Below the pieces are notes generated by a model. It had not been told where the DNA came from. It searched no databases and saw only the letters and a program-made list of their open reading frames with translations. From an uncultured Planctomycetales bacterium (lineage in GTDB: Bacteria > Omnitrophota > Gorgyraeia > Zapsychrales > Fredricksoniimonadaceae), in the NCBI GenBank assembly GCA_964483535.1, contig CAZABZ010000001.1:80284-118561 (forward strand): 38,278 nucleotides of DNA, read 5' to 3'. The position numbers were made by a program, and so were the translations under genes. This document shows positions 1,423 to 23,954 of the stretch, piece after piece; within the stretch, counting starts at the first letter, position 1, and each line of letters opens with the position of its first letter.

Positions 1423-1423
1423 T

Positions 1424-2645: not shown

Positions 2646-5600
2646 ACGTCAGGTCCTCCGGCTGCTTCTGGCAGTTAACAAATTTCAAAGAATAATTACT
2701 CTGATTATAAGTCTCGCCCGAAGCCTGAGAAGCGTCACTGCCAGCTATATATTCCGCACAAATATGGCTTTCCGGGGCATTATTCAACAAATTATTGGCC
2801 TGGGAAAGACATTTGCCGTAGCCTGGGGAAGGAGAGTTAATGTCCACCGTACCGCTAGTGCTACCAGGATTGTAGTTGTCATTTAACATAAAAGCATTGC
2901 CAAGTGCCGTCTGATCCTGTGTCGATATTCCAGCATATCTTAACCCTTGTACCGTTTGGGGCACAAGGCCAAACCCGATAGAACCGCCGCTTAAGCCTTT
3001 ACATGCTTGCATAAGCTCTTTTCCGGTAGTATTGGCAACGCTGCCTGCGGCAGGATTATGAAATAAAAATTGCCATAACGGATGTCCATTAGGGAAGAGG
3101 ACAGAATTATTGCTATGGTCCTCATCCCAACGCTTGACACTGACATACACAAGTCCATCGCGAGCTTGGAGGGTATAAGTACGAGCCATATCACATGTCA
3201 AAGAATACGTGACAAAGTCTCCAGTAATGACTACATAGTAAGTCCACCAATTACTACTGTTGCATCCTAGCGCCGTCTCCGTGTCAATCCACGGCAATAG
3301 AGACCCTATGCCTAAGGTGTTACTTCCGCCACGGCCCGGCGAATATGCCGTGACTTTAACAAGATGCGCGTATCCCTGCTGGCCATTAGGGTAGGTATTA
3401 TCAACCCATCCATAGATTACGGAATTTGGTAATTTTGCCGTCGGAGAAGGTTGATTATACGCGTAGGTCAGCTGGGCTGCCGGCCCGCCGGCTGAGCAGT
3501 CGGAACCAGAACAGGGTTTGAAAAAAGCACTCAGCGCGTTGTATCCTGATTGAAAAATACTTTGCATGGACTGGGCCCTAGTGTAAATATCCTGTAAAAA
3601 CCCGGATCGCAACGCGAACTTTGGAGCCTCGTCGGTAGCTAAAATATAGCTGTTCTGCACCCAATTCGCAAAACTGCTTGGCGCGGTAGCGGTAGGATCA
3701 CATGAAGATTTATCGCCTGGAGTGAAGGCAGGTGCTTGCCCCGCGAGAGAACGGCCCAAAACCGAAGGCGCGCACGAGGCAGGCAATGCGGAGCATGTTG
3801 TTGCCTCCTTCTTCAAGTCGACCAAGCACTGATTATAGTTGTTCGCCGGGACCGTGCCCGCATTATAATTCAGACAGGCAATAACAGAGGGCATGCTCCC
3901 CCAGGTTGCTCCGCCGTCATTACTATTTATATAGGTATTTTCAGTTGAGCCATTCTCACTTAAAAGTATCGCTTCCTGCGGAACGCACCAGGCACTGTTG
4001 CTCTCATAGCTTTTTGTATTCAACCAATTTGTAATCACCGTGTTCCAAGTGCTGAGATTTGTCACCAGCGGCGGCAAACGGCCGGTCGACGGATCAATCC
4101 AATCAGCCATCTGAGGATACCAGGTAGTAAATGTTGCGCTTAATGTTCCTACATCATTACTAAGGAAGTTATTTGAAAAATTAACAAAATCTGTCAAGGT
4201 GTGCATAGCGTAGTCCAACCCATCCAGGGTACTGGGCGGTTCAGTTAAAGGGGGAGAGGGCGCCGAAGAAGACGCAGTGGCGCTGCCAGTCAACTCACAA
4301 GTACCATCCTGAAAGGTCGAGGTTGCTCCATTATATGGCCAGGTCGTGGAGCACATCTGGTTGTCTCCTTGCAACCAAGAGCCGGAGCTGGCTTCTCCAA
4401 AGCTTGGATCAATAGCAGGATTTGACGATCCCACTATATCAATCGCCCCATTGACAACGGTGCTGGACGGAGTTGGCACGCCGTTAGTGACGCTGCCGGC
4501 AAGATAATTAACACAACAATCTTGGCCCTGACAACTATACGGCAAACTTAACTGGGCCAAATCTGTAAATCCCGTTGGAACTGTAAAAACCGGAATATTA
4601 ACTCCGTTGGTAGCTGTCGTTGCCGGGGCGCACCAATGGAGATCCGGAGAGTTTGCGACAGGAGGATTGGTTAGTGGATTAATGTTATTCACCTCCGGGC
4701 TATAAGCCTTCATCAGCCAGAAAAATGGAAATACTCCGTTGGGAAACTCCACAACAGGCGTCACTCCAGCGGGGGTTATCACATCGGGCTGTAAAGTAAA
4801 AGGCGGTGTCCCCATGGGCTGGTCACGGCCATACTGGGCTAAAAATGATACCCCTGCCGCATAGTTCTGAAAAGTAGGATCATAAAGAAGCGTGTACGGA
4901 TTTGTCGAGGCCCCGTATGCTCCATATGGATTATTTTGCGTGCATTGCACGGGTGCGCCGTTGTAGCTTGTGCCTTGATCACAACTAGAAGGCCGTACAG
5001 ACACATACTGTGTAGGGTGCATGGGATTGAACGTACAATTAGAAGACTGTGTAGACAAACCCGACATGGAGTGCGTGGAATTGAAAGTACCTTTGGTAGC
5101 GCTGGAAGCACAATACGCCGGATCCAGCACTTGCAGCGGCTGACAGCATGGGTCGCAATAAGGACTATAGGGATTTGAACTGGAGCACGCGTCATTTAAT
5201 TGGAAAACATTCGGTATCTTCACTTGACAGGCTGGATCTATAGGATCATTAATGCAAGTTTGTGCGCCTAAAGCGGCACAGACAGGGTTGAGCGTAACAG
5301 CGTTCTGATAACTTGCATAATCACTTTCATTTTGACCGCACGTTTCGCCATTCATTAATTCCCCCAATTGATTATAAAAGAACACCACCTGAGGGATAAG
5401 AGGTTTGTTTAACATTTTTAAACGGTCGGTATAAAATAACGCAAACCGGCCAACAGTGTCATTGGGGAAACCGTTTGTGCTTCCCAAAACACCATTGGCG
5501 TTAGAATCAAGATAATCCGTGATGTTAACTTGGTCCGTGACGCTGCCTTGAAGGGCCGCGGCGATGCCCCCTTCATAAAACTGCTGGGTGATAGGCTGGT

Positions 5601-6018
5601 TCTTCTGTAATTGATTCCATATCGATGTTATCCCCGGCTGAACCACGACTATTTGAAGGACTAAATTTGCAACAGCCGCCACAACCAGAAGCCACATCAC
5701 AGGCCCCATCGTCCCATAACTACAAATGGTTACAACAATCGCTACTATAATTGTAATAATAGCCACTATGAGCCCCACCCTGCCGGTATATTGATTAGTG
5801 CCCTGTAAATTTTCCTCCTTCATCATTTCACCATAACTGGCCGCATCCGAAGCCAAAAGCGAGGCGCTTTGATCGGCGGCTATAGTCAACAAGGCCTTTG
5901 TCTGGGCAACGCGACCCCAGTTTAAGGTGATGGCAAGAAAAATCAGCGCCGCCGCCGTCAATAAAATCAAAATCAAGGCAGTTTGGCCACGCGTGTCATT
6001 GTTTATTTTTTTAATCAT
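2626..6018 (-). CDS. Giant TadG-like protein (1130 aa): TadE/G-like N-terminus, an extra TM hairpin, and a long Cys/Ser/Thr/Asn/Pro-rich extracytoplasmic region
   Basis: N-terminus TRGQTALILILLTAAALIFLAITLNWGRVAQTKALLTIAADQSASLLASDAA matches the Tad_N (TadE/G-like) pattern. A second hydrophobic block of about 50 aa (GLIVAIITIIVAIVV...LVLQIVVVQPG) follows. I count about 33 Cys. No other domain recognised. The start overlaps the upstream gene by 4 nt (ATGA). Confidence 0.7.
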   Translation of the reverse strand: MIKKINNDTRGQTALILILLTAAALIFLAITLNWGRVAQTKALLTIAADQSASLLASDAASYGEMMKEENLQGTNQYTGRVGLIVAIITIIVAIVVTICSYGTMGPVMWLLVVAAVANLVLQIVVVQPGITSIWNQLQKNQPITQQFYEGGIAAALQGSVTDQVNITDYLDSNANGVLGSTNGFPNDTVGRFALFYTDRLKMLNKPLIPQVVFFYNQLGELMNGETCGQNESDYASYQNAVTLNPVCAALGAQTCINDPIDPACQVKIPNVFQLNDACSSSNPYSPYCDPCCQPLQVLDPAYCASSATKGTFNSTHSMSGLSTQSSNCTFNPMHPTQYVSVRPSSCDQGTSYNGAPVQCTQNNPYGAYGASTNPYTLLYDPTFQNYAAGVSFLAQYGRDQPMGTPPFTLQPDVITPAGVTPVVEFPNGVFPFFWLMKAYSPEVNNINPLTNPPVANSPDLHWCAPATTATNGVNIPVFTVPTGFTDLAQLSLPYSCQGQDCCVNYLAGSVTNGVPTPSSTVVNGAIDIVGSSNPAIDPSFGEASSGSWLQGDNQMCSTTWPYNGATSTFQDGTCELTGSATASSSAPSPPLTEPPSTLDGLDYAMHTLTDFVNFSNNFLSNDVGTLSATFTTWYPQMADWIDPSTGRLPPLVTNLSTWNTVITNWLNTKSYESNSAWCVPQEAILLSENGSTENTYINSNDGGATWGSMPSVIACLNYNAGTVPANNYNQCLVDLKKEATTCSALPASCAPSVLGRSLAGQAPAFTPGDKSSCDPTATAPSSFANWVQNSYILATDEAPKFALRSGFLQDIYTRAQSMQSIFQSGYNALSAFFKPCSGSDCSAGGPAAQLTYAYNQPSPTAKLPNSVIYGWVDNTYPNGQQGYAHLVKVTAYSPGRGGSNTLGIGSLLPWIDTETALGCNSSNWWTYYVVITGDFVTYSLTCDMARTYTLQARDGLVYVSVKRWDEDHSNNSVLFPNGHPLWQFLFHNPAAGSVANTTGKELMQACKGLSGGSIGFGLVPQTVQGLRYAGISTQDQTALGNAFMLNDNYNPGSTSGTVDINSPSPGYGKCLSQANNLLNNAPESHICAEYIAGSDASQASGETYNQSNYSLKFVNCQKQPEDLTYDVSGL

Positions 6019-6266
6019 GGAATTGTATTGTTCCCATTAGTTATGCTGCCGTGATACACCGCGGCCATCGGCTGAGCAATGCCGACGTCAGAATTTAGTT
6101 GTGACGCCGGATCGGTGCCCACCAGTGTTGTCATTGAATTGTCCTGCGCCCAACGCCGCTCGGCCAAATCCATGCCTGTCCAACGGAAGACCCTCACCAT
6201 GCCGTAAACTAAAAACATAATGACAACCATCGCAAAGGTGAATTCTATGGTTGATTGGGCTTTCAT
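6015..6266 (-). CDS. TadE-like pseudopilin (83 aa)
   Basis: N-terminus MKA/QSTIEFTFAMVVIMFLVYGMV fits the TadE-type motif. Translationally coupled to both neighbours. Confidence 0.7.
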   Translation of the reverse strand: MKAQSTIEFTFAMVVIMFLVYGMVRVFRWTGMDLAERRWAQDNSMTTLVGTDPASQLNSDVGIAQPMAAVYHGSITNGNNTIP

Positions 6267-8138
6267 TTATTTAATCCTCAATTGTCCTGATGTATCAGTC
6301 ATCCAAAAATGGCCGCGCCGATCTTGAAGACGGCTGCGGACAAATAACATATTGCTATTCGCATAAAAACATGTCGATTTAATATTCTGCTGACTGCTAA
6401 AACAGTTATCATTGGAGCCGGGAGGTATACAGACTTCCACCGGATTAGGCGTTACCCCGTCATTGGCAACAGTAGTCAGACGGTTCCCATTTTGATCGCA
6501 AAAGCGTCCGGTGTTATTGCTCAATTGAATAGTGCGCTGTATTAAGTCTATTGTATCGCGCTTATTAGCGCTGCGCACAAACTGGTCGGTTTCAGGATTG
6601 TATAATTTCCCTTCCTTAATCTGTAAATAAGTGCCGTCCTGGGTGAAGGTGAAAATTTGCGAGTCTGGCTGTAACCCAGGCTTGGGGCCGCAAGAGGTGA
6701 ACTGGTCCCAAATTCCATCAATATCCCCGCCCTGAGGGTCCTCATAAGACACCGTTGGTGTCCCGTCTGAATTCAGGCTGATTGCGTAAATAGTTACTCC
6801 CTCTTCCGCTATCCTGCCGTCTATATCATACTGAGGATACTGGTTGTTGCTGGCATTCAATCCGATTACGCTATCGATTGTAGCCCCTCCTGCCGAGGGA
6901 CTAAACAACCCAAACACGCTGCTAGAAGCCGCGGTGGTTGAAGGGACCCTTACCGCGGTGGCCGCCCATTGCCAGGCTACGTAACAACGCATGTTCGCTG
7001 CCGTAGTAGCTGAACATGCTGTCACCCCCCCTGTCTCCGCCATCGCAGGAAATTGCTGCTCTACCGACGTGTAATCCCCCAAGCGCTGAAGGTCATATTG
7101 CATGTCCCCACTGCTGTTGGTATACGGATTGCCGTTTGCATCCAACACCGTCAAAGTCGAACATAACGCGTTATACGAAACGCTATCCGACGAGCTACTC
7201 GTGGTGGACGAACAGGCCGGTGGGGTCGGTAAAAAGAAGGGCGCCGTCTGTCCTCCGTTGACCGCTCGTGTATAAAATAATTTATAAGAGGTCATGTTGC
7301 TCTGCAAAATACTTTGTATCTGATTTAATGCCGTCTGCCCCGCACTTGGAAACTTGTTTTCAAACCACGTGACAAACGAAGTTGGCAACGTCGACGAATT
7401 AACAGTGCCCTGGGTATTAGACCCCAAAGCCAGACTAATCACCCCTTCATTGGCCAATTCATTAAAAATGGCATTGCCATTGGCTGCCATTGTTGTGTCT
7501 GTCTTCGTCTTGCTGATATTGGAATAATTATTTGTCGTGTCGAATGTGAATGGTACTACATAATCAAACAGGCTTGCATTAACTGTCGGGAGCGCCCATT
7601 CCCTTTTATTGCGATTGCTTTGGTTCTTTAGGCACTGCTGTTGCTGCGGGGTGGAGGCGTTACAATCCGACGAGCATTGCGTAGATTTTGTAATTGTTTT
7701 ATTCGTAACATAGGACGCGGTGGTAAAAGGAAAATACTGGCCGTTGATATAAACGTCCATGATCGGCAAATTCGAAGCCACCTCGCCAACATCCAAAGGA
7801 TAGAGCTCCTCATACGAAAAGGTCCCTGAACCCTGGGCAATAAAAGGATTACGGTCTAAAGCCCCATACTTATTAAAGTCCGGGGAAAGCCGGTCTTCCA
7901 CAAAAAGAATTGAAGCGCTGGTGCGGGACGTATTGCCGGCCTTGGAGCTATTCCATGAAGCCAGCATGGCCATGCGCATGGCTTTAAAATTTTGATTTTG
8001 CGTATAACTATTGCCCACGGCGGAACGCACAATCGTCCCCAGAATAAAAACAAGGATAGCTCCGAAGACGGCAAGCTCGATGGCAGCCTGCCCTGCCTTG
8101 GCGATGACCTGTGTTTTTTTATTTTCCATCTTGAGCAT
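6267..8138 (-). CDS. Large TadE-like protein (623 aa) with a Ser/Thr/Asn-rich extracytoplasmic region
   Basis: N-terminus KAG/QAAIELAVFGAILVFILGTIV fits the TadE_N pattern. I count about 12 Cys. The remainder is not recognisable. Its start overlaps the upstream pilin stop by 1 nt (TAATG). Confidence 0.65.
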   Translation of the reverse strand: MLKMENKKTQVIAKAGQAAIELAVFGAILVFILGTIVRSAVGNSYTQNQNFKAMRMAMLASWNSSKAGNTSRTSASILFVEDRLSPDFNKYGALDRNPFIAQGSGTFSYEELYPLDVGEVASNLPIMDVYINGQYFPFTTASYVTNKTITKSTQCSSDCNASTPQQQQCLKNQSNRNKREWALPTVNASLFDYVVPFTFDTTNNYSNISKTKTDTTMAANGNAIFNELANEGVISLALGSNTQGTVNSSTLPTSFVTWFENKFPSAGQTALNQIQSILQSNMTSYKLFYTRAVNGGQTAPFFLPTPPACSSTTSSSSDSVSYNALCSTLTVLDANGNPYTNSSGDMQYDLQRLGDYTSVEQQFPAMAETGGVTACSATTAANMRCYVAWQWAATAVRVPSTTAASSSVFGLFSPSAGGATIDSVIGLNASNNQYPQYDIDGRIAEEGVTIYAISLNSDGTPTVSYEDPQGGDIDGIWDQFTSCGPKPGLQPDSQIFTFTQDGTYLQIKEGKLYNPETDQFVRSANKRDTIDLIQRTIQLSNNTGRFCDQNGNRLTTVANDGVTPNPVEVCIPPGSNDNCFSSQQNIKSTCFYANSNMLFVRSRLQDRRGHFWMTDTSGQLRIK

Positions 8139-8467
8139 TAATTCCCTACCTGTGTACTCCCTGTCTTCGTTTCCAAAGAATTGGACGCGTCAACCCGATT
8201 TGTCCATTGGCCCTGTTCCAACTGACCTGTACTGTTATTAGATCCATTTAAGACAGTCACAATGGATTGTGCATTAACCTGCGTCGCGTAGACGATATTG
8301 GAGTTAACGGACTGGGGGTCATACTGGTCGCCAAAATCATCTGCCGCTGATTTCCACCGGCCCTGAATGCCTCTCTTGATATAATCCTTCATGGCAATCA
8401 TAACTCCCAGGATAATAATCACGATCACCGTGTATTCTAAAATTGTTTGTCCTTTATGGTTGCGCAT
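8138..8467 (-). CDS. Flp-type prepilin P8 (type B, 109 aa)
   Basis: HKG/QTILEYTVIVIIILGVMIA, then YIKRGIQGRWKSAADDFGDQYDP. This is a close paralog of P4. Confidence 0.8.
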   Translation of the reverse strand: MRNHKGQTILEYTVIVIIILGVMIAMKDYIKRGIQGRWKSAADDFGDQYDPQSVNSNIVYATQVNAQSIVTVLNGSNNSTGQLEQGQWTNRVDASNSLETKTGSTQVGN

Positions 8468-8507
8468 AAGTTTTATCCTTTAATCCGTGTCCTTGCACAA
8501 TTGTTTT

Positions 8508-8867
8508 TTACTGATTAGTCTGAGTAAACCCTCCATTGGTGATGGTATTTGTCATCGTATAAGAGGACTCATTGAAAACCGTATTCGTCACATAAACCGC
8601 GTTACCGGATGCCGGCATATACCCTGATTCTGTTACCTGCTTCTTTTTGGATTCTTGTGTCACGCTGTTGGACCCTTCCATATATCCTTGCTGGACGTCA
8701 TTGAAATCCTGGTCTGAATTCTGCTGGTTGCCCACCTGATCTGCCGTGACCTTTACCAAACTTTGCACGCCGCGCTTGATGCTTGTCCCCATATAATAAA
8801 GCACTACCGTAACAATGCCGACGATGATGGTGTATTCCAAAATAGACTGGCCGCGGCGCGCGAACAT
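8508..8867 (-). CDS. Flp-type prepilin P7 (type B-like, 119 aa); start moved to the internal ATG at 8867
   Basis: MFARRG/QSILEYTIIVGIVTVVL fits the prepilin motif. GGGAGGTG lies 5 nt upstream of this ATG. The 70-aa N-terminal extension in the ORF track is an out-of-frame read through the P6 tandem repeat. Confidence 0.75.
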   Translation of the reverse strand: MFARRGQSILEYTIIVGIVTVVLYYMGTSIKRGVQSLVKVTADQVGNQQNSDQDFNDVQQGYMEGSNSVTQESKKKQVTESGYMPASGNAVYVTNTVFNESSYTMTNTITNGGFTQTNQ

Positions 8868-8868
8868 C

Positions 8869-9327
8869 TTAACACCTCCCGTTGGCACATTCCGGCTGCA
8901 ATTGAGTACTTCTCGAATTAATTTGAGTCGCCTCATTATTGGCACATTCCGGCTGCAATTGAGTACTTCTCGAATTAATTTGAGTCGCCTCATTAGAAGA
9001 CCTGGTATAAATGGCCCCAAGGACCTGCGCGTTGCCCGTTGTTGCCCCTGTAGTGTCTTGTTGATTCTTCTGAACACCCGCAGCCATTATCGAATAATAC
9101 GGCTCGTACTCATAAGGGATTTGATTACCCGCGGCTCCAGTGGCTTTCAAGCAATTAGCGTCACATGCGCCGCTATTGACCACTGAATTAATCATAAAAT
9201 TCCTCGCGTCATGAATACGCGCCTCAAGGCCGCGCTGTACAAAAGTGGTCATGGCTACCAGCGCCGCGATCACTACAAAAAAAATCATCACATACTCTGA
9301 CAGGATTGCCTGGCCTTTATTATTCAT
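8869..9327 (-). CDS. Flp-type prepilin P6 (type C, 152 aa) with a duplicated 19-aa C-terminal unit
   Basis: NNKG/QAILSEYVMIFFVVIAALVA, then QRGLEARIHDA and a YEYEPYY motif shared with P3. The C-terminus carries NEATQINSRSTQLQPECAN twice. Confidence 0.8.
   Translation of the reverse strand: MNNKGQAILSEYVMIFFVVIAALVAMTTFVQRGLEARIHDARNFMINSVVNSGACDANCLKATGAAGNQIPYEYEPYYSIMAAGVQKNQQDTTGATTGNAQVLGAIYTRSSNEATQINSRSTQLQPECANNEATQINSRSTQLQPECANGRC
8882..8995. repeat. Perfect 57-bp tandem duplication (8882..8938 and 8939..8995), in frame within pilin P6
   Basis: The two copies are identical base for base when read from the sequence. The period is 57 bp, equal to 19 codons. Confidence 0.95.
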
Positions 9328-9339
9328 GCCTCGCCTCGA

Positions 9340-9386
9340 GTGTCATTGCGAGGAACCGTAGGCGACAGCGTTCCTCGCAATGACAC
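9340..9386. repeat. Perfect 17-bp-stem palindrome GTGTCATTGCGAGGAAC-(13 nt)-GTTCCTCGCAATGACAC in the P5-P6 spacer
   Basis: Read directly from the sequence. This is the only long intergenic gap (73 nt) in the pilin array. No U-tract follows on the transcribed strand. Confidence 0.9.
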
Positions 9387-9400
9387 AATAAGTGTTCCTT

Positions 9401-9607
9401 CTAACTCGCCGGAGTACCTGTGCTCGCCGCGTTATCTTGCAAGTATGAGGCCACGTTGAGCATGTCCTGTGTCGTCGAATTAAACACATTAGTCAGGCGC
9501 GTCTGAAAAAGGCTGCCTTTGCCCAGCGTAAACAAGATAATTACCGCAACGACCGCCGTGACGAGCAAAATATACTCCACTGTGCTTTGACCTTTATGTG
9601 TGCACAT
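9401..9607 (-). CDS. Flp-type prepilin P5 (type A, 68 aa)
   Basis: THKG/QSTVEYILLVTAVVAVIILF. The N-terminus is nearly identical to that of P2. Confidence 0.85.
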   Translation of the reverse strand: MCTHKGQSTVEYILLVTAVVAVIILFTLGKGSLFQTRLTNVFNSTTQDMLNVASYLQDNAASTGTPAS

Positions 9608-9625
9608 GCGTTTGTCCTTTACTCA

Positions 9626-9958
9626 TTACGTGGCGTTAGATCCCCAATACTCCTGCTGAGTATTGATGATAACTGAATTCTCCATGGTATTGGTAACTTC
9701 AGTGCCCAGTATATTGGATGTAGACACCCCCGCGTTAAACGTCTCCAAAGTATTACTGGACCTGTTAATTGTCTTAACTGCATTTGTATTACCATCGGAA
9801 TACTGATCGCCGATATCGTCCGCGGCGCTTTTCAAACGTCCCTGCACCCCGCGTTTGATATAGACCTGAAGGGTCAATAGGGCGCCGATAATGACAACTA
9901 TCAACACCGCGTATTCCAAGGTGCTTTGCCCTCGTCTTTGATTAAGATATTGCAACAT
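9626..9958 (-). CDS. Flp-type prepilin P4 (type B, 110 aa)
   Basis: QRRG/QSTLEYAVLIVVIIGALL, then YIKRGVQGRLKSAADDIGDQY. AAGGAGGG SD upstream. Confidence 0.85.
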   Translation of the reverse strand: MLQYLNQRRGQSTLEYAVLIVVIIGALLTLQVYIKRGVQGRLKSAADDIGDQYSDGNTNAVKTINRSSNTLETFNAGVSTSNILGTEVTNTMENSVIINTQQEYWGSNAT

Positions 9959-9988
9959 AGGATCCCTCCTTAGAATATTTCGTTATAA

Positions 9989-10351
9989 TCATTGTGTTTG
10001 GTTCATGTCACTAGCGTTATAGGTGGATACCTGAGAACCGGTTCTTGCGCGGTTGCTATCAGAATCTGCACCTACCAACCCTGCCCCTAAACGTTTATTT
10101 TCAGTGCTGTTGGTGGCCACATCATAATTACTCTGCATATAATAAGGCTCATACTGAGTTGAGTTTCCCAAGCCTATTGTAGAGTTGCTGCCAGTAGTGG
10201 CCATATACTGTGCTGCGTCGTGGATACGGGCTTGCAACGCGCGTTGGGCGTAGGTCTGCATGGCAATGACCCCGGCAATCACCAAGGCGATCAAAAGCGC
10301 GTATTCCGCGGTATTTTGAGCTTTTCTGTTTTTAAGGAAGTTTCTTAACAT
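9989..10351 (-). CDS. Flp-type prepilin P3 (type C, 120 aa), Ala at the predicted -1 position
   Basis: NRKA/QNTAEYALLIALVIAGVIA, then QRALQARIHDAA and a YEPYY motif. AGGAGG SD upstream. Confidence 0.8.
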   Translation of the reverse strand: MLRNFLKNRKAQNTAEYALLIALVIAGVIAMQTYAQRALQARIHDAAQYMATTGSNSTIGLGNSTQYEPYYMQSNYDVATNSTENKRLGAGLVGADSDSNRARTGSQVSTYNASDMNQTQ

Positions 10352-10397
10352 GTGTTCCTCCTATATGGATTCATAAAAGTTATCTTTTTAGCCAACC

Positions 10398-10646
10398 TTA
10401 TTTTGGCAAAACAGAGACCGAATACGGAGGCGTAGCATTCCCGCCGCCGGAGGATCCCTGCTCCGAGGCAGCTAATCTATCAGACATATTGCCCACCTGT
10501 TCAATGGCTGAGTTCAATGTCGAATTAAGCTGCGACTGTAACCCACTCTTGTTGGAAGTTACCATGGCGATGATAACTGCCACCACCGCGGTCACAAGCA
10601 AAACATACTCCACCGTGCTTTGACCTCTTTTATTTTTTATATGCAT
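10398..10646 (-). CDS. Flp-type prepilin P2 (type A, 82 aa)
   Basis: NKRG/QSTVEYVLLVTAVVAVIIAMV. GAGGAGG SD upstream. Confidence 0.85.
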   Translation of the reverse strand: MHIKNKRGQSTVEYVLLVTAVVAVIIAMVTSNKSGLQSQLNSTLNSAIEQVGNMSDRLAASEQGSSGGGNATPPYSVSVLPK

Positions 10647-10673
10647 AAATTCCTCCTCAAGTACGAGGTTTTT

Positions 10674-10829
10674 TTAATTTTCAGAATCCTCAGTAATCAT
10701 CTTCTGTTGTGCTTGAACGGAACGGAACACGTAGGTGCTCAAAGCAGCCACCGCTGCTGAGATTAAGGCAACGACGATCGCGTATTCGATGAGATTTTGC
10801 GCGTTTCTATTTTTTAATTTTTGGATCAT
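10674..10829 (-). CDS. flp: Short canonical Flp pilin P1 (51 aa), absent from the supplied ORF track
   Basis: Hand translation of the minus strand gives MIQKLKNRNAQNLIEYAIVVALISAAVAALSTYVFRSVQAQQKMITEDSEN, ending in TAA. It has a basic leader, a QxxxEY motif and a hydrophobic helix, and is the first gene of the array. A purine-rich stretch AAGGTGAAGGG lies just upstream of the ATG. Confidence 0.7.
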   Translation of the reverse strand: MIQKLKNRNAQNLIEYAIVVALISAAVAALSTYVFRSVQAQQKMITEDSEN

Positions 10830-10980
10830 CGCCCTTCACCTTACATGCCAGAAGATTAATTAGACCCTTCCCCCTTTAAAAAACAGGAGCGAGGAACTCT
10901 ACAAATAACGTAGAGGGGTCTTCCATTTATGTAAAAGCCCCATAAGGGACTGTTGATACAATTTATTAAACCCTAAAGAA

Positions 10981-14844: not shown

Positions 14845-16848
14845 TTAAAATTTCAGCTTGATTCCGCCTAACATCGTCCTGCCTGGAGCTGAATAATAAA
14901 CCTTGTCTGTGCTTGTTGTGCTCATCACAGTGTAGTCGTTATAGAACTCGTTGAAGAGATTGTCCACACCCACGAATAGCTCCGCCATTTTTAGTTTATA
15001 GGACAACTTAAGATCTGTAATCCAATACTGCTTGTCCCTCGCGGTTTCATTAGTAACGTCATCTATCGCATACTTTTGGCCTGTAAACTTCTCATTAGCG
15101 GTAAATATAAAATGTTTCAAGAACCCTACAGCAACCCCCGCGGTTGCCTGAGTGTTAGGCACCCCTGGTATTGTGCTGTGATTATACGGGCCACCGATAA
15201 AGATAGGATCCTGATAAGTAAAGCTGGTGTTAAACGTCAATTTATCCAACCGGGCCGGCAGCATCTTAAGCAAGTCGGTCTCTTGACTAAACTCAATGCC
15301 TATCCTGCGGGTGTGGCCATAATTGTTGTTGCTTCCAAAGTACACATTATACGGGTCATAGAAAATTTCGTTCTTATTATCCATCCAATACGGGGTTATG
15401 GTCAGAGAGGTAATATCATTCAAATTGTGCTTGATGCCAACCTCATATTGAATACCCGTCTGCTGTTTTAGGTTTGTATTCAACCCGGTGTATGTGCTAT
15501 ACCACTCGTCCGTCGCTAAGAACCGGAATGTTTGTTGCACACTGGCGTGGACATTCGACCCCGGCGCATATTCATACTTCATGCTGGCGCCGCCAACAGG
15601 GGCATTGGCATCCTTAATCGTTTTAAGGTCATTACCTTTATCATTGAACGTATACTGAGCATGCTGGTAGCGATACCCTGCTTCTAAACTCAACTTGTCA
15701 GTGACCCACAAAGTGCTGGTATCATAGGCCCCTAACTCATTCATGGTAACTACCAGATTATCAAAATCCTCTGCCAGGCCTGAACCTCCGCCAAGTATCT
15801 TATTCTGACTATCATAATAATCCACGCCAGCCACCGTCTGAAAATCATGACCGAGAACGACACCCTTATAAACATCCTTGCCTAATATCCCTACTGTTGT
15901 TATATCATACTTCACCGCGGTTGCGCCATAAGGGGCCTCATCAAAATACGCATAAGTGTCCTTATCCCTATACGAAGTATCTAATGATAAATCTCCCAAA
16001 ATCGTCTTATCGTCAACGCCAAGGGAAAACATCTTATCTAAAGTTGATGCGTAATCTTCATTCTGGGGGTATGCTGAGGCTCTCCTGCCTATCGTCGCAA
16101 GATCCTCCGGGGTCAAATCTCCCGGCAGCCCATATTCATCCTGATGCCACACAAGATCAGAATTTACGGTAAGCGCATCGGTAACAGAATAACTAAACTT
16201 GCCGTCGTAATCCTTGGCTAGCATGTTGCTGTTCGCTCTGTACCCATCAGAATCAGCGTACTTCTGATTCATCTGATAAGACAAACCTTTCTGGGAGCCT
16301 CCTACAGACACATCCTCTGTTGATGCGCCATAGCTTCCGCCATCATACTCAACAGCGCCGGATGCGGCTCCACAACCTTTCTTAGTAATAATATTAACAA
16401 CCCCGCCCACCGCATTATCACCATACAAGACTGAGCCGGCACCTCTAATAACCTCAATCCTTTCTATCTCCTCGATGGGGATCTGAGTAAGATCCGGGCC
16501 GGAGATGTCTATGGAATTGACCTTGTGCCCGTCTACAAGAACTAATATATTACTGACTGCGGTATCAGCGAAACCTCGAATATCCGCCTTATCTGTCTTA
16601 ACCTCCCCGTTATTATAAATATGCACTCCCACGCTGCTATCGAGCAACTCACCCACATTTTGAGCGCCGGAATCCTGGATCTCCTGCTGAGAAATAATTG
16701 TTACATCCGACGGGGCCCTTGTCTCTTCAATCAAAGCTCTGTCTGGAGTGATGACTATAGGTTCAAGAGTTGAAACATATTGATTGTCCCCATACGCCCA
16801 TCCTGCAGCTACAACCATCAATAAACTTACCAGTAATACATCCTTCAT
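14845..16848 (-). CDS. TonB-dependent outer-membrane receptor, BtuB-like by context
   Basis: Signal peptide, TonB-box-like EPIVITP, plug-domain motifs (DIRGF, IERIEVIRGAGSVLYG), a long beta-barrel region and a C-terminal aromatic residue (KLKF). A cobalamin riboswitch lies immediately upstream. Confidence 0.85.
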   Translation of the reverse strand: MKDVLLVSLLMVVAAGWAYGDNQYVSTLEPIVITPDRALIEETRAPSDVTIISQQEIQDSGAQNVGELLDSSVGVHIYNNGEVKTDKADIRGFADTAVSNILVLVDGHKVNSIDISGPDLTQIPIEEIERIEVIRGAGSVLYGDNAVGGVVNIITKKGCGAASGAVEYDGGSYGASTEDVSVGGSQKGLSYQMNQKYADSDGYRANSNMLAKDYDGKFSYSVTDALTVNSDLVWHQDEYGLPGDLTPEDLATIGRRASAYPQNEDYASTLDKMFSLGVDDKTILGDLSLDTSYRDKDTYAYFDEAPYGATAVKYDITTVGILGKDVYKGVVLGHDFQTVAGVDYYDSQNKILGGGSGLAEDFDNLVVTMNELGAYDTSTLWVTDKLSLEAGYRYQHAQYTFNDKGNDLKTIKDANAPVGGASMKYEYAPGSNVHASVQQTFRFLATDEWYSTYTGLNTNLKQQTGIQYEVGIKHNLNDITSLTITPYWMDNKNEIFYDPYNVYFGSNNNYGHTRRIGIEFSQETDLLKMLPARLDKLTFNTSFTYQDPIFIGGPYNHSTIPGVPNTQATAGVAVGFLKHFIFTANEKFTGQKYAIDDVTNETARDKQYWITDLKLSYKLKMAELFVGVDNLFNEFYNDYTVMSTTSTDKVYYSAPGRTMLGGIKLKF

Positions 16849-16990: not shown

Positions 16991-17075
16991 ATACCGTTAG
17001 GTGTTCGGACTTCCCCCAAGGGAGTTACCGCAGCGGGACTGTTCTCGATTCACACGAGATTTCCCTAACTGGTAT
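16991..17075 (-). promoter_or_regulatory. Cobalamin riboswitch aptamer (compact form with a minimal P6 region)
   Basis: The minus strand reads UUAGGGAAAUCUCGUGUGAAUCGAGAACAGUCCCGCUGCGGUAAC...GGGGGAAGUCCGAACACCUAACGG. This parallels the E. coli btuB leader core (UAGGGAAUCCAGUGCGAAUCUGGAGCUGACGCGCAGCGGUAAGG ... GAAGAC-CUGCCGG B12 box). P1 forms from AUACCAGUUAGG and CCUAACGGUAU. Confidence 0.8.
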
Positions 17076-17083
17076 GTGTTTTT

Positions 17084-17630: not shown

Positions 17631-17981
17631 TTATATAGAAGGGTGCTGAATTTGTACCTGGTCCCCTATTTGTGTTTTGGAGGCGGCAATGGTGCTTGAA
17701 GGTACTTCAATGGCATAGGAGGCTTTAAAAAATACCGGAGACAGACAAAAAGGTTTAATTCTCTCACAAAGGCCAATCACTTTATTGTGGCGGTCACAAA
17801 AAATCACATCAATGGAAAATTTCATAAAAAACATATGGATGGATTGGCAGTGCGTTATGATTAAGGCCTCGCCAAGAGGCAAGTCCTTGACCCCAAGCAA
17901 CCCCTTCATTCTAGCCCAAGGATTTTGGGCAATTGCAACATTGGAAGCAATAGTGGTGTCGCGGGTAAGATTTAAAATCAT
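17631..17981 (-). CDS. DUF192 (COG1430) family protein
   Basis: 116 aa with ARMKGLLG, LIITHCQSIHMFFMKFSIDVIF and SYAIEVP segments, typical of DUF192. Confidence 0.65.
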   Translation of the reverse strand: MILNLTRDTTIASNVAIAQNPWARMKGLLGVKDLPLGEALIITHCQSIHMFFMKFSIDVIFCDRHNKVIGLCERIKPFCLSPVFFKASYAIEVPSSTIAASKTQIGDQVQIQHPSI

Positions 17982-17999: not shown

Positions 18000-20162
18000 T
18001 TATGCGCTGACGTGCGTTTCAAAAATAGTTTTGCTAAGCGGTATGCCACGGGTGGCAAAATCCTCAAAACACTTAGGAATATACCCGGTGGCCGCGTATT
18101 CTCCCATGATCTGCCCTTCAGCATTCACGCCCTTATGAACAAACGTAAACACGTCCTTGACCTCAGGCAAGTTGTCGACCATCCGGCCCGTTAGCTCGGA
18201 GATCGCGGTGATCTTGCGTGACCCATCGGAAAAACGGTTGATTTGAACAATAATATTAATCGCTGAAGCGGCCATTTCATAAATGGCGCGCAGCGGCAAC
18301 TCAATCCCTGAAAGTAAAACCATCGACGACATACGTGAAAGCGTGTCCCGTGGCGTGTTGGCATGCAAGGTGGTCAAGGAGCCGTCATGGCCTGTATTCA
18401 TCGCCTGCAACATATCCAAAACTTCCGGTCCGCGGCACTCGCCGATGATTATCCGGTCCGGGCGCATACGCAAGGTATTGATAAAAAGGTCCCTGATCGT
18501 CACCTTGCCGCGGCCTTCAATGTTAGGCGGACGGCTTTCCAGCCTGGCCCAATGCGTTTTACTCAACCGCAATTCCGCGGCGTCTTCAATGGTAATAATG
18601 CGCTCATTATCCGGAATAAAATGGGAAATGATATTAAGCAGGGTGGTTTTCCCAGCGCCCGTGCCCCCGGAGACAATGATGTTCTTTCGGCCGATGACAC
18701 AGGCATTTAAAAAATCAGCCATGGGCTGTGAGATGCTTTTAAAACGGGTGAGTAAATCTTCCATGGTGTAACGGTCTTGAGAAAATTTGCGCACCGTAAT
18801 CATGGGGCCGTTAAGGGACAACGGCGGGATGATCGCGTTGATGCGCGACCCGTCGGAAAGACGCGCGTCTACCATGGGCGTAGATTCATCCACGCGACGG
18901 CCTAAAGGGGCAATGATCCGGTCAATCGTCGCGCGCAGCTGGTCGTTGGAAATAAATCTTTTATTGGTAAAAAGCAATTTCCCGTTTTTTTCAACAAAAA
19001 TTTCATCTTTATTGTTGACCAGGATGTCTGTGATGCTATCATCGGCCAACAAATCTTCCAGGGGGCCAAGCCCCAAGGCCTCATTGACGATTTCCTTGAC
19101 TAAACGGGCCCTCTCCTCATGGCTTGAAAGAAACGTTCCCGATGTTTCCGCCAAAAGCTCCGTGACCACTTTTTGGGCGGCTTTGCGCAGATTGGCCGCC
19201 TGAGAGGGGTCGTTTAAAACGTCCTGCGACATCTTTTGTAAATTCATGCGCTCAACCAAAAGGGCATGCACGGCCCGTTTTACTTTAATGACCTCATCTT
19301 CTTCTTTTTGAAAATCAATCGCTCCTTCAGTAACGTTTGGCGTAATGCCGAATTTCTCCCAGAACGCGTCACTTTTTTTAGAAGTGTTGTCGCTGGCGCG
19401 CACTTTAATGACGTCACTGCCCCGCACGTAAAGGCTTTCATCATTCAAACTATCGGCGATCGTAAAAAAGCTCTCTGATACCTTTGCTTTGGGACTGTCT
19501 ATGACACAGGGCACGCCGCGATTTAAAGCGCCCCCCACTGTCTTGCCGTCCGAAGGGATCAAAGCAAAAACTTCACAGGCCAGGGCATTCTTGACTTCCT
19601 GCCAGGCAACGCCGCCACGGCTTTCAGCCCGGTTTAAAATCAAACGGACCATCTTTAAAGGAAAATGCAGGCTCGAAAGAATTTCCATGCTGGTTTTTAC
19701 CTGATATACCGCCAGGATGTCAGGAGTGCTTACCAATAAAATCAGGTTGGAGGCGTCCAGGATGCTGATGAAAATCTCGCTAAAGGAGCTCCCTCCGTCG
19801 ACGATGATATATTCATATTGGCTGGATGCTTTTTTAAAAAACAAACGTAAATTATCCGAGGTGACGTGCCCGATTTGCCGCGGGGATGTAACGCCAGGTA
19901 AAAAATGCAGTCCGCTGCTGTGGGTGACGACGTATTTTTTAATCGCGTCGGGTGAATTTTCCATGTCCGCCAAAATATCGACTAAGCAATGCGTTGGCGG
20001 CAAATTAAGCATCCTCGCCATGTCCTGGCTGGCCTGCAAGTTTAAATCCACAATCAGTACCCGCTTGCCCCTCAAGGCTAATGCGCAGGCAATATTAACC
20101 CCAATAAAGGTCTTGCCCACCCCGCCTTTATTGCTGAATACTGTAATGACTTTAGCTAACAT
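18000..20162 (-). CDS. Fused CpaE/TadZ-like (ParA/MinD-type) ATPase and CpaF/TadA secretion ATPase
   Basis: The N-terminus carries a deviant Walker A (SNKGGVGKT). The C-terminal half carries T2SS-E/VirB11-type motifs (GGTGAGKTTLLN Walker A, IITIEDAAEL, RPDRIIIGECRG, TGHDGSLTTLHAN). Confidence 0.85.
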   Translation of the reverse strand: MLAKVITVFSNKGGVGKTFIGVNIACALALRGKRVLIVDLNLQASQDMARMLNLPPTHCLVDILADMENSPDAIKKYVVTHSSGLHFLPGVTSPRQIGHVTSDNLRLFFKKASSQYEYIIVDGGSSFSEIFISILDASNLILLVSTPDILAVYQVKTSMEILSSLHFPLKMVRLILNRAESRGGVAWQEVKNALACEVFALIPSDGKTVGGALNRGVPCVIDSPKAKVSESFFTIADSLNDESLYVRGSDVIKVRASDNTSKKSDAFWEKFGITPNVTEGAIDFQKEEDEVIKVKRAVHALLVERMNLQKMSQDVLNDPSQAANLRKAAQKVVTELLAETSGTFLSSHEERARLVKEIVNEALGLGPLEDLLADDSITDILVNNKDEIFVEKNGKLLFTNKRFISNDQLRATIDRIIAPLGRRVDESTPMVDARLSDGSRINAIIPPLSLNGPMITVRKFSQDRYTMEDLLTRFKSISQPMADFLNACVIGRKNIIVSGGTGAGKTTLLNIISHFIPDNERIITIEDAAELRLSKTHWARLESRPPNIEGRGKVTIRDLFINTLRMRPDRIIIGECRGPEVLDMLQAMNTGHDGSLTTLHANTPRDTLSRMSSMVLLSGIELPLRAIYEMAASAINIIVQINRFSDGSRKITAISELTGRMVDNLPEVKDVFTFVHKGVNAEGQIMGEYAATGYIPKCFEDFATRGIPLSKTIFETHVSA

Positions 20163-20228: not shown

Positions 20229-21980
20229 TTAATACGAAGCAATGACTTTCTCCGCAGGTGCTTGGGCGCTCCCCGCAATGAGATTGTTGTAAACGATGGG
20301 AATCGTAAAAACAATGCCTTCCTGGTCCATCCCCGTCGTAAAAGCATCAAAAGGAGCGGCTGTTTTGGCGGCTTGCATAGCGTCTTGGTCTAAAATATAA
20401 TTCCCTGAGGATTCCATCACCTCTGCCGAATCCAATGACCCGTTTTTAAGTATGCGCAGTTTCAATTTAACAGTGCCTGCCAAGGCAACGCCACCTGCCC
20501 CTACCGCGTTGGGATAGGAAATCGCTTTGGAGATTTTTTCCTGGACCATGCGCGCGTAAGCCGTCATCACCGGAAGATATTCCGGTTGAACTTTGTTGAC
20601 ATCAACGGAGGGTCCCTTTGCAACCGGCCAAGACGAAGACAGAGGCTCATGTTCATACTTCGCGCTAATTTCTTTCCAAGAATCACGCTCCAAGGGTGTC
20701 GGCATCACCAATTGATTGTCCGCGAATTTCTTATCTGTAAGCACCGTCGGTGTCAAAATAATCACCATTTCTGTATTGGTATCCGGGGCGGGTGTTTGGC
20801 GGTTTCTAAATAAAGCCCCCACGATAGGTATTTTAGATAAAATCGGGATCCCTGTTACTGTCTCGTTGTCGGTATACTTAATCAATCCTGCCAAGGCGAT
20901 GGTCTGTTTATTGTCCATAAACAAATCTGTCGAAGCCGTGCGCGTAATAAAAGCCGTCCCATTTGCTGTTGACGAATTCGACGCGTCAATGTCGCGAATG
21001 TCCACATTGAGCAATATATCGATTTTCCCTTCGCGGATGGTGGGTGTTACCGTTACATTAACACCATATTGTGTATACGTGGTGCTTTGGGTCGATGAAG
21101 TTCCCGTGGCATTGGTAGTCGTGTTGAGAACGGGTATTTCCCCTCCCACCAGAAAGCTTGCTTGCTTGCCGTTGAGGGCCACTAAGCGAGGCTTGGAAAT
21201 AAGCCGGGCCTTGCCTTCCTGAATAAAGGCATTAATCGTGGCCTGTAATGGGGTCCGGGCAAAACCGCCTACCTTAAAAAAGTCCTTGAACTTGCCGTTC
21301 CCGTTAGTGGAAGGAAGATTTTCAGTTTCAGTCGTCAGTCCGGGAGTGGTGCTGGTACTACCGCTGCCCGTAGAAGCAGTGACTGAGCTCCCCCACAAGA
21401 TCCCTAAATCTTTCTCAAAGGATGTGCTGATTTCAACAATCTGCATATCCACTTGAATCAAATCTTCGTTCTTTTCTTCTTTGACCAAGTTCAACAAATT
21501 ATCGTTATACGGTTGCAAAATATTCTCCAGACGACTCTTGTCCTCTTTGGACACTGCCCCCGAAACCACCACCTTGCCTTCATTCAGATTTTCCTCCAAA
21601 GAGACGTCCGTAATATTCGCTTCATTCAAAAGTTTTTGCACACGGGCCTTCACGACGCTTAAATCTTCACTGACCACGCGCACTTTAACGCTGCGCTTGC
21701 CGCCGGCGTCCCATAAAAATAAAACAGTCTCTCCGGATTTCTTGGCTAAAACAGAAACTTTATCGCTTTGGGCATCTGAAATATCCGCTATGTCCGGGTT
21801 GGTCACTGAAACGCGGGTCAAACTGTTGACCGGAACCGTTTCAATATCACCGGTGACCATGTTAATGACATCGCCCGCCTGCGATGTGTTTTCATCGGCA
21901 AAGGGGCGCGGCATTAAAAACATGGTCAATCCAAAACCTAATGCGATAATAAAAATTTTATTTAAAAAAGCACGTTTCAT
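20229..21980 (-). CDS. CpaC/RcpA-type secretin with an appended TonB C-terminal-like domain
   Basis: Signal peptide, a pilus N-terminal region (TRVSVTNPDIADIS...VLAKKSGETVLFLWD), and a secretin core (LISKPRLVALNGKQASFLVGGEIPV ... IPILSKIPIVGALFRN). The last 110 aa or so fit the TonB_C pattern (ISYPNAV...LAGTVKLKLRILKNGSLDSAEVMESSGNYILDQDAMQAAKTAAPFDAF...FTIPIVY). Confidence 0.8.
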   Translation of the reverse strand: MKRAFLNKIFIIALGFGLTMFLMPRPFADENTSQAGDVINMVTGDIETVPVNSLTRVSVTNPDIADISDAQSDKVSVLAKKSGETVLFLWDAGGKRSVKVRVVSEDLSVVKARVQKLLNEANITDVSLEENLNEGKVVVSGAVSKEDKSRLENILQPYNDNLLNLVKEEKNEDLIQVDMQIVEISTSFEKDLGILWGSSVTASTGSGSTSTTPGLTTETENLPSTNGNGKFKDFFKVGGFARTPLQATINAFIQEGKARLISKPRLVALNGKQASFLVGGEIPVLNTTTNATGTSSTQSTTYTQYGVNVTVTPTIREGKIDILLNVDIRDIDASNSSTANGTAFITRTASTDLFMDNKQTIALAGLIKYTDNETVTGIPILSKIPIVGALFRNRQTPAPDTNTEMVIILTPTVLTDKKFADNQLVMPTPLERDSWKEISAKYEHEPLSSSWPVAKGPSVDVNKVQPEYLPVMTAYARMVQEKISKAISYPNAVGAGGVALAGTVKLKLRILKNGSLDSAEVMESSGNYILDQDAMQAAKTAAPFDAFTTGMDQEGIVFTIPIVYNNLIAGSAQAPAEKVIASY

Positions 21981-21983: not shown

Positions 21984-22823
21984 TTAGAGTTCCTTGCCGC
22001 CTCTGAAGATTTGAATGCTCGGTTTATTCCCCACGGGCTTGCTTGCGGCTGCCCCGTCTGGATTTTGAATATCAAGCCCCTGATTGGCCAAAACATAGTC
22101 TGCCAAAGTTTTCCACGTGTCTGCTTTGACCTTTTGGTGCCCGCTTTCATCCGGAGAACGCAACGCCAATTCCAAGATCCCATTCTTATTAGCAAAGGCC
22201 AAAAGCCCTGCTTCTTGCGGGTCAACCGCAACAGTGATTTTTAAAAAGCTCTCCGCCTGCTGCTCATCATAAGCGCCGGGGTCGTCTTCATTGGTATTAA
22301 TGGCCAAAACCTGCAGGCCCTGAAAAATCATGGCAGTCACGGTTTTCTTATCTGCGGACTGGAAAGGAACATTAAGTTCAGCTATCACATCCACAAAATC
22401 TCCGGGATTGAGCAATCCGCCTACGGCGGCTAATGAATCGATCTTAACCGTTATCGCGCGTTTACCCACCGGTGTTTTTAACGCCAATGAAGGTTTGCGG
22501 ACTTTTTGTACTTGAGCGGCTTGCTGCATCCGGGCCGCTTCCTGTTGGCTCTCCTTCAAGGCGGCCATTTGCTTTTGCATAGCCTCAGCCTGTTGGCTTT
22601 TAACGCGTTCTAATTCCTGCGCCAAAGCGGCCATTTGCTGGTCGCTCCTCTGCTGGATCTGGGCGGCCATCTCCTTTTGCTTGACATCGTACTGTTCCGC
22701 TAAAGACGAGGTCTGTCCTTCGATGCTGCTTTTGACATAATTACTGGTCAAAATCACCGCGATAATCCCGGCAGCTACCGCGCCGACAATAATCAAAAGT
22801 TGTTTTTTGTTTTCAAGGGGCAA
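21984..22823 (-). CDS. CpaB/RcpC-like pilus assembly protein with a Gln/Ala/Met-rich coiled-coil segment; TTG start
   Basis: N-terminal TM helix, a coiled-coil-like stretch of about 70 aa, then the RcpC-type segment GKRAITVKIDSLAAVGGLLNPGDFVDVIAEL. AGGAGGG lies 5 nt upstream of the TTG start. Confidence 0.7.
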   Translation of the reverse strand: MPLENKKQLLIIVGAVAAGIIAVILTSNYVKSSIEGQTSSLAEQYDVKQKEMAAQIQQRSDQQMAALAQELERVKSQQAEAMQKQMAALKESQQEAARMQQAAQVQKVRKPSLALKTPVGKRAITVKIDSLAAVGGLLNPGDFVDVIAELNVPFQSADKKTVTAMIFQGLQVLAINTNEDDPGAYDEQQAESFLKITVAVDPQEAGLLAFANKNGILELALRSPDESGHQKVKADTWKTLADYVLANQGLDIQNPDGAAASKPVGNKPSIQIFRGGKEL

Positions 22824-23835: not shown

Positions 23836-23954
23836 AAACATCCTCCAAAAAAAACAAAATCTTTTCAAGTATACCTGATATTTTTTAAAAAAGCAAGTCA
23901 ACGGCCTAAAAAACTAATCTTTTTTTCGTAACCCATTACCTTGCACTAAATAAG

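Follow-up and report, generated by a model that had tools for sequence, protein, structure and literature searches.

Secretins vary between systems in how they are targeted and anchored, and for the Tad (type IVc pilus) secretins the picture is still emerging (RcpA–TadD in 2023 and RcpC in 2025). The last four residues of RcpA bind the tetratricopeptide repeat (TPR) pilotin TadD, and this extreme C-terminus is essential for assembly (PMC10499894); accessory modules commonly tie secretins to peptidoglycan or to the inner membrane (PMC9239104, PMC4098917). Here we analyze a Tad secretin of the CpaC/RcpA type encoded on a 38,278-nucleotide stretch of DNA (the window) from an uncultured bacterium deposited as Planctomycetales and placed by GTDB in the Omnitrophota (assembly GCA_964483535.1, contig CAZABZ010000001.1, positions 80,284 to 118,561). 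Whereas RcpA ends ∼35 residues past its core, the secretin studied here runs on for 169 residues, into a tether and a domain of the TonB_C family.

Omnitrophota are ultra-small and probably predatory or parasitic bacteria, with the Tad system as their presumed means of attaching to hosts. The secretin::TonB_C fusion seems not to have been described before: literature searches found no published description of it, and the main survey of the Omnitrophota, which analyzes RcpA phylogeny, never mentions TonB. It is visible in databases but mislabeled, the current annotation for the secretin being "TonB family protein". An earlier reading of the DNA made without database searches (the sequence-only reading) had called the arrangement unusual, which is true with respect to the characterized secretins RcpA, GspD, PilQ and InvG, all of which lack a TonB_C domain, but not within the Omnitrophota, where the fusion is the norm.

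A TonB_C domain at the C-terminus of a Tad secretin

The sequence-only reading had proposed that ∼170 residues follow the secretin core and that they include a TonB_C-like domain. Both proposals are borne out. The peptides that it quoted (EMVIILTPTVL, ISYPNAV, GTVKLKLRILKNGSL, VMESSGNYILDQDAMQAAKTAAPF and FTIPIVY) all lie within a single uninterrupted open reading frame (ORF), 20229..21980 (-), whose frame is continuous, and 169 residues remain C-terminal of the Pfam Secretin match (PF00263, residues 252-414, 127.3 bits versus a gathering score of 27.5). Pfam TonB_C (PF03544) matches residues 500-565 with E=2.4e-10 and 41.2 bits versus a gathering score of 24.6, rising to 43.3 bits when the isolated C-terminus is the query, and the NCBIfam model TIGR01352 (tonB_Cterm) scores 43.9 bits versus a cutoff of 27.1. 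TonB_2 (PF13103) gives a weak match to residues 474-545, and the TolA family TIGR02794 matches the domain more weakly (E=0.006). The domain comprises a long helix, a YP motif, strands beta1 and beta2, an SSG..LD..A helix and the edge strand FTIPIVY, the PIVY of which is nearly invariant across the family; 13 domain positions are invariant among 39 diverse members.

For residues 411-583, modeled from a 39-sequence alignment, AlphaFold2 (AF2) predicts an alpha-beta-beta-alpha-beta core (H59-76, E92-101, E106-113, H118-131 and E145-154 in that model) with predicted local distance difference test (pLDDT) values >90. The best Foldseek matches in the PDB are TonB C-terminal domains (TMt 0.6-0.74), with TolA domain III next. 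Helicobacter pylori TonB (6SLY/5LW8) aligns with TMt 0.68-0.74, a root-mean-square deviation of 2.3-2.6 Å and 27% identity, and further TonB matches include those of N. meningitidis (9DDZ/9DC4) and P. aeruginosa (6FIP/6I97) as well as FusB (7ZC8). The domain profile in turn recovers the H. pylori TonB C-terminal domain over the whole domain length (E=1e-10). These matches are far beyond chance and confirm that the C-terminal extension is a genuine TonB_C domain.

The rest of the protein is equally recognizable as a secretin. Its sequence matches in the PDB include 8JVB, GspD, RcpA (8ODN) and PilQ (PDB secretins at E=4.7e-28 to 1e-13), and Foldseek returns 9WFD/8JVB (an Acidithiobacillus secretin, the best match), GspD, InvG, PilQ (6VE2, PilQ–TsaP) and RcpA; the predicted monomer fold resembles the protomers of solved secretin rings. 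The full-length AF2 model, a monomer built on 82 sequences, is laid out as a signal-peptide helix (residues 3-22, then a low-pLDDT stretch at 26-35), a beta-sandwich, an N1-like domain (H107-120, E126-131, E136-143, H145-158 and E162-168, pLDDT >90), the core (174-414), a helix (429-441), a disordered stretch (451-467), the TonB_C domain (468-564) and a disordered tail. From sequence and model together, we infer that the signal peptide is cleaved. The conserved segment just after the core (415-441), in which P427 is nearly invariant, is probably equivalent, given its position, to the S-domain helix of other secretins. AMIN, LysM, PG_binding and OmpA-like domains had no Pfam match in the secretin protein.

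In the family as a whole, 27-162 aa (median 65.5) separate the secretin match from the C-terminal domain match; this stretch is low in complexity and rich in E, A, P, S and K, with 9.5% proline versus 4.5% overall. Because this linker is variable in length, low-complexity and predicted to be disordered, we take it from the models to be a flexible tether. It may be a remnant of the proline-rich spacer of TonB.

Searching 5.8 billion proteins, we found 319 homologous clusters, and nearly all of the best 120 carry PF13629, PF00263 and PF03544 together, down to 42% identity. Where homologs are named, JGI uses "pilus assembly protein CpaC" and NCBI uses "TonB family protein [Candidatus Omnitrophica]". 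With the isolated 112-aa domain as the query, no more than 12 gene fragments were recovered, all from short contigs. We also scanned one genome per GTDB species with full-length alignment patterns, a procedure that favors close relatives, and obtained 80 distinct loci. In 78 of these the match extends to residue 564 or further, with identity as low as 33%, and a domain hidden Markov model (HMM) finds TonB_C in 79 CpaC ORFs, 6 of which contain a tandem pair (e.g., L047, L057, L058 and L059). Column conservation of the TonB_C domain (0.65) is near that of the secretin core (0.69) and well above that of the linker (0.37), which indicates purifying selection on the domain.

These results bear on whether a separate tonB-like gene was joined to the secretin by an assembly or frameshift error, or whether the extension is a decaying, functionless remnant. 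A tether derived from the TonB spacer would be consistent with an ancient gene fusion. However, the ORF is single and continuous, hundreds of independent contigs from different studies present the same architecture, and the domain is conserved like the secretin core, keeps its invariant positions and has been duplicated in some lineages, so that an artefact or relic is barely credible. The sequence-only reading was thus right to treat the extension as part of the same gene.

Almost all of the 80 loci are titled Omnitrophota. The few labeled Elusimicrobia, Phycisphaerae, Elulimicrobium or "Planctomycetales" have the same gene order, and because they keep the exact Omnitrophota synteny, these labels are probably naming differences within one lineage. 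Judged by this distribution, the secretin::TonB_C fusion is ancestral and near-universal among Omnitrophota Tad secretins. A whole phylum would then have a Tad secretin in which the pilotin-binding tail has been exchanged for a tethered TonB-type domain, and the fusion provides a simple sequence marker of Omnitrophota Tad loci.

Possible roles of the tethered domain

On balance, we favor the reading that the domain is a passive periplasmic docking or anchoring module for the outer-membrane channel. The sequence-only reading had raised anchoring as one option, and we infer it as the preferred one, being compatible with all findings. If it is built like RcpA (C13/C14) and other secretins, the ring would contain ∼12-15 subunits, and from the outer rim of its barrel every subunit would hang a single TonB_C domain, or two in some lineages, in the periplasm. 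Homology with solved secretins would place the C-terminus on the outer, periplasmic side of the barrel, the site occupied by S-domains and pilotins (PMC10499894), and the tethers could reach several to tens of nanometres. Lacking an inner-membrane anchor, the domain could not transduce the proton-motive force; by analogy with TonB and TolA, it might bind a periplasmic ligand via edge-strand beta-augmentation, or else the cell wall directly. We read the docking as passive and multivalent because the TonB/TolA fold binds unstructured strands by edge pairing; the TonB–BtuB/FhuA/FoxA and TolA–TolB complexes are among the Foldseek matches. The result would be a channel that is fixed in the envelope against the load generated by the pilus, or positioned there, and TolC-like channels would be held likewise. 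The job would equal that done elsewhere by AMIN domains, TsaP, GspA/B or the TadD pilotin.

Several points weigh against this docking module. The full-length AF2 monomer has a predicted template modeling score (pTM) of 0.42 and contains no confident contact between the TonB_C domain and the rest of the protein, and the periplasmic location proposed for the C-terminus derives from homology with solved secretins. To our knowledge, TonB_C is not established as a peptidoglycan-binding fold; murein affinity has been reported for E. coli TonB but is not commonly taken to define it. One periplasmic partner that we considered as the TonB_C ligand and dropped is CpaB/RcpC: in P. aeruginosa, RcpC contacts the RcpA N-domain, to which its C-terminal beta-hairpin has been assigned (PMC12307814), leaving no reason to invoke the TonB_C domain. 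By the same analogy, the CpaB/RcpC beta-hairpin would be expected to dock on the PF13629 N-domain of the secretin studied here.

The docking module gains generality from other proteins with the same TonB_C subfamily. When the domain profile was scored against 1.84 billion representatives, 34,973 proteins were found at E<=1e-3. Of the best 147 of these, which we classified, 78 are secretin fusions, 13 of them two-domain secretins (∼680-800 aa; e.g., P0094, P0137, P0141 and P0143), and ∼55 consist solely of 2-6 tandem TonB_C domains (P0134 with a signal peptide). Pfam also finds, among the non-secretin relatives, TolC-like OEP proteins with 1-3 N-terminal TonB_C domains (P0248, P0252, P0158, P0283 and L081:214-2340), one of which adjoins an RND pump; one homolog is named Candidatus Omnitrophica. 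Further carriers include FG-GAP, M56-peptidase and chalcone-isomerase-like fusions. Because secretins, TolC-like channels and free multi-domain proteins all carry it, this subfamily is a portable periplasmic module, one that Omnitrophota join to at least two unrelated types of outer-membrane channel. The TolC-like fusions argue for a generic anchor of outer-membrane channels and against a partner specific to the B12 receptor described below.

That receptor had attracted the attention of the sequence-only reading, which noted a TonB-dependent receptor with the TonB-box-like motif EPIVITP 3.4 kb downstream in the same gene string and suggested that the secretin's domain might contact it. The receptor is indeed present, with the N-terminus STLEPIVITPDRA. 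It could be proposed that TonB_C binds its EPIVITP motif, clustering or regulating the receptor or standing in for TonB: TonB boxes are ligands of the TonB C-terminal fold, and a plug-domain receptor with such an N-terminus is encoded on the same strand close by. However, the receptor is BtuB-like and under its own cobalamin riboswitch. With DUF6580 just upstream and a B12-binding radical-SAM gene following the receptor, it forms a block (12248-17623, ∼5.4 kb; DUF6580, riboswitch, receptor, radical-SAM gene) that breaks up the otherwise conserved tad operon in this genome only. The receptor, DUF6580 and the radical-SAM gene are missing from all 80 related loci, which keep the fusion; there, DUF192 runs straight into the homolog of gene 11049-12101. 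On this comparison, the B12 block is a recent insertion particular to this genome while the fusion is ancient, and the adjacency of secretin and receptor is coincidental. In addition, an outer-membrane-tethered domain without ExbBD could not energize transport, and the TolC-like channels with TonB_C would be left unexplained. The suggested contact is thus not upheld, and we consider it very improbable.

TonB itself needs an N-terminal inner-membrane anchor that couples it to ExbB/ExbD. The secretin carries a TonB_C domain yet is no TonB energy transducer, because a signal peptide and secretin N-domains stand in place of the inner-membrane anchor and no exbBD genes are nearby. A search for tonB–exbBD, which the sequence-only reading had proposed for the whole genome, here covers the locus: neither MotA_ExbB nor ExbD nor another TonB_C turned up among the scanned window ORFs or in the 10 kb past either end, and in the 80 related loci the ±10 kb around the secretin contain no further TonB_C ORF. 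Both negatives count against a model of motor coupling, in which TonB_C would pair with a TonB/TolA-like C-terminal domain or with ExbD/TolR, and a proton-driven stator would pull on the secretin, gating it or aiding pilus dynamics. The model can draw on the strand-exchanged or edge-paired dimers as which TonB C-terminal domains crystallize (1IHR, 1QXX and 1U07 are among the matches), on tethers of up to 162 aa that could span the periplasm, and on genetic links between TonB paralogs and pilus functions that depend on a secretin, as in the title of a report on A. baumannii TonB2 and natural transformation (PMC8811193). However, tonB, exbB and exbD are absent beside this locus and from the extra 20 kb, and Tad dynamics are normally powered by a cytoplasmic ATPase. 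We regard such coupling as decidedly unlikely.

The C-terminal tail, disordered in both AF2 models, raises a different possibility. Its motif, ...(E/Q)(K/T)V(I/V)A(S/A)Y, is kept as VIASY, VVASY or VVAAY in the ∼25 closest loci, where relatives end ...QTVVASY or ...QTVVAAY. Elsewhere the motif is missing or differs, with proteins of other clades stopping at PIVYSLKKN or carrying ...LDSFLKNVATHK. The sequence of the tail is reminiscent of a TonB box or, alternatively, of the pilotin-binding tail of RcpA. We entertained the idea that it is a built-in TonB-box-like strand that docks on its own domain, and dropped it as a general mechanism since the tail is disordered in the models and confined to the closest clade. 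Docking in trans within that clade is conceivable. The domain and tail could instead act in assembly only, as a pilotin substitute or as a handle for BAM, a Lol-like factor or a SurA/PpiC-like factor. In support of this, the extreme C-terminus of RcpA recruits TadD and is itself essential for assembly (PMC10499894), the VIASY-type tail is conserved in one clade, a SurA_N plus peptidyl-prolyl isomerase (PPIase) gene lies immediately upstream of cpaB in 75 of the 80 loci, and Pfam scans of the window ORFs revealed no TPR or TadD-like gene. The last observation gives weak support to the suggestion, made by the sequence-only reading, that the domain replaces a TadD-like partner; it covers the window, and a TadD may be encoded elsewhere in the genome. 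Against a role limited to biogenesis, most of the phylum has no tail or a different one and retains the domain, TolC-like fusions have TonB_C at their N-terminus, and free multi-domain TonB_C proteins exist. On this evidence a pure biogenesis device is doubtful, although it deserves some weight beside the docking module.

A broader version of the docking module is also conceivable, namely that TonB_C modules make up a phylum-wide handle network in which secretins, TolC-like channels and free multi-TonB_C proteins are tied either to the cell wall or to a stator of the ExbBD/TolQR type. We think this unlikely. If true, such a network would replace the Lpp/OmpA/Pal/pilotin logic of model diderms, and in its strongest form the proton-motive force would reach the Tad secretin, gating it or resisting or assisting retraction during attachment to prey or host. 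For the docking module as such, the ligand of the tethered domain would show how a load-bearing pilus machine holds in a minimal envelope, and knowing it would extend the uses of the TonB/TolA fold past energy transduction.

The Tad locus and its neighborhood

The secretin gene belongs to a complete Tad system (Table 1), and its synteny with cpaB, tadA and their partners is kept in 76-79 of the 80 loci. Across the phylum the conserved order is gyrB-gyrA-(GST)-CN_hydrolase-mdh-ppiC-cpaB-cpaC-tadZA-DUF192-gene11049-pilins, beside dnaA/dnaN. TadZ/CpaE-like and TadA/CpaF proteins are normally separate; here they are fused into one 720-aa, TIGR03819-like protein, which is present in 76 of the 80 loci. 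The SurA_N plus PpiC protein encoded upstream of cpaB may serve the secretin specifically, in its folding or assembly. The smallest product of the pilin array has 51 aa, and the largest are two giant pilin-like proteins, one with 623 aa (6267-8138) and one with 1130 aa (2626-6018); the array is kept in ∼45-53 loci and the 1130-aa protein in 21. For the gene at 11049-12101, which keeps its position after DUF192, a role in the tad locus as a component or regulator is likelier than one as a transposase.

Table 1. Features of the secretin and of the surrounding locus; positions are those of the window.
Feature	Position	Strand	Evidence
Tad (type IVc pilus) secretin CpaC/RcpA with C-terminal TonB_C, 583 aa	20229..21980	-	ORF; Pfam PF13629+PF00263+PF03544
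Residues 1-29: N-terminal signal peptide, hydrophobic helix then ...PFA/DE; not a TonB-type membrane anchor	21894..21980	-	sequence reading
Residues 38-102: N-domain beta-sandwich, T2SS-T3SS_pil_N PF13629	21675..21869	-	38.2 bits vs cutoff 23; pLDDT 94-96
Residues 107-168: N1-like alpha/beta ring-building domain	21477..21662	-	weak YscD BON-like matches; model
Residues 174-414: secretin core, double beta-barrel and gate	20739..21461	-	PF00263; PDB sequence and Foldseek matches
Residues 415-441: conserved post-core segment, KKFA..Q.VMPTP and helix 429-441	20658..20738	-	conservation 0.53; helix pLDDT 87-94
Residues 442-467: disordered low-complexity tether (predicted)	20580..20657	-	pLDDT <50 at 451-467; conservation 0.37
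Residues 468-565: TonB_C-type domain	20286..20579	-	PF03544, TIGR01352, AF2, Foldseek, hmmsearch; conservation 0.65
Residues 566-583: C-terminal tail ending ...AEKVIASY, clade-specific	20232..20285	-	pLDDT <50; tail comparison
cpaB/rcpC, periplasmic alignment ring, immediately upstream of secretin	21984..22823	-	PF16976 84 bits, TIGR03177 97 bits; 79/80 loci
SurA_N + PpiC-type PPIase gene, directly upstream of cpaB	22891-23901	-	75/80 loci
tadZ-like (ParA/MinD)::tadA/cpaF ATPase fusion, immediately downstream of secretin	18000..20162	-	AAA_31/CbiA/ParA residues 3-240; T2SSE 363-639
DUF192 gene, conserved operon member	17631..17981	-	PF02643 64 bits; directly after tadZA in 63/80 loci
Cobalamin riboswitch ahead of receptor	16979-17088	-	36.6 bits, above gathering score
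BtuB-like TonB-dependent receptor with plug domain, 3.4 kb downstream of secretin	14845..16848	-	Pfam/NCBIfam
350-aa gene with weak sub-cutoff HTH_Tnp matches	11049-12101	-	after DUF192 in 56 loci; lengths up to ∼650 aa or more
At least 12 Flp-type pilin/minor-pilin genes	2295..10835	-	G-x4-EY-type N-termini; weak sub-threshold Flp_Fap and class III signal matches
tadB and tadC, inner-membrane platform	508..2290	-	PF00482 T2SSF in both

The tad locus adjoins the chromosomal origin region, which occupies 26667-37823 of the window (dnaA, dnaN, gyrB, gyrA, yidC, jag and parA). The 10-kb extensions past both window ends contain a giant ORF and parB, yicC-like and gmk-like genes. The giant ORF encodes 21,986 aa; it starts directly after tadC, ∼530 bp outside the window counted from position 1 (L082:11449-20915), and this placement fits a report that pilus genes flank the giant proteins of Omnitrophota (10.64898/2026.06.07.730766).

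Some related loci differ in detail from the window. In several of them (e.g., L006:11742-12749 and L016:11638-12837), an extra gene of 336-400 aa, absent here, lies between cpaC and tadZA; its product has a signal peptide, no Pfam match and a C-terminus (...GSKFG(I/V)QF) like that of an outer-membrane beta-barrel. In L012, the same gap is filled by an unrelated P-loop-like ORF. In L011 (CAVYLG010000003.1, 1.29 Mb), cpaC, tadZA, gyrB, gyrA and mdh are each in several ORF pieces; because housekeeping genes are hit too, these splits look like long-read frameshift errors rather than pseudogenization.

Comparison with known systems

Up to the end of its core, the protein follows the RcpA/CpaC pattern of the P. 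aeruginosa RcpA–TadD complex (8ODN) and of Caulobacter CpaC. It combines a PF13629 beta-sandwich with a PF00263 core, matches 8ODN in both sequence and fold, and is encoded in the order cpaB-cpaC-tadZ/tadA together with tadB/C and Flp pilins. The PF13629 N-domain stands in place of the N0/STN domain of GspD or PilQ.

The C-terminal domain is related to that of TonB (E. coli, H. pylori, P. aeruginosa and Neisseria; 6SLY, 5LW8, 9DDZ, 6FIP and 2GSK) by family, by the YP motif, by the SSG..LD..A helix and by the edge strand, and in TonB, too, a flexible spacer precedes it. Unlike TonB, the secretin fusion has neither an inner-membrane anchor nor adjacent ExbB/ExbD, and its domain sits on an outer-membrane protein. 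TolA domain III (1LR0, 6S3W and 3QDP) shares the fold class, including the long N-terminal helix, although its sequence similarity is weaker than that of TonB and TolA is anchored in the inner membrane. In its known role (title of the 6S3W entry), TolA domain III is a passive platform on which TolB, or a phage or colicin protein, is captured by an unstructured N-terminal strand.

In function, we propose an analogy, and only that, with the AMIN domains of PilQ, with TsaP (LysM), with ExeA/GspA and with GspB/OutB, each of which ties a secretin ring to peptidoglycan or another envelope layer. Their folds are unrelated to TonB_C, and they are mostly separate proteins or N-terminal domains. In architecture, the fusion resembles the TolC-like OEP::TonB_C proteins (P0248 and P0283) and the TonB-C fused to a Wzi-like barrel outer-membrane protein in FCB bacteria (10.1101/2025.01.14.632903): in each, a linker joins the domain to an outer-membrane protein with no inner-membrane anchor, while the TolC-like fusions differ from the secretin in their carrier and in having TonB_C at the N-terminus.

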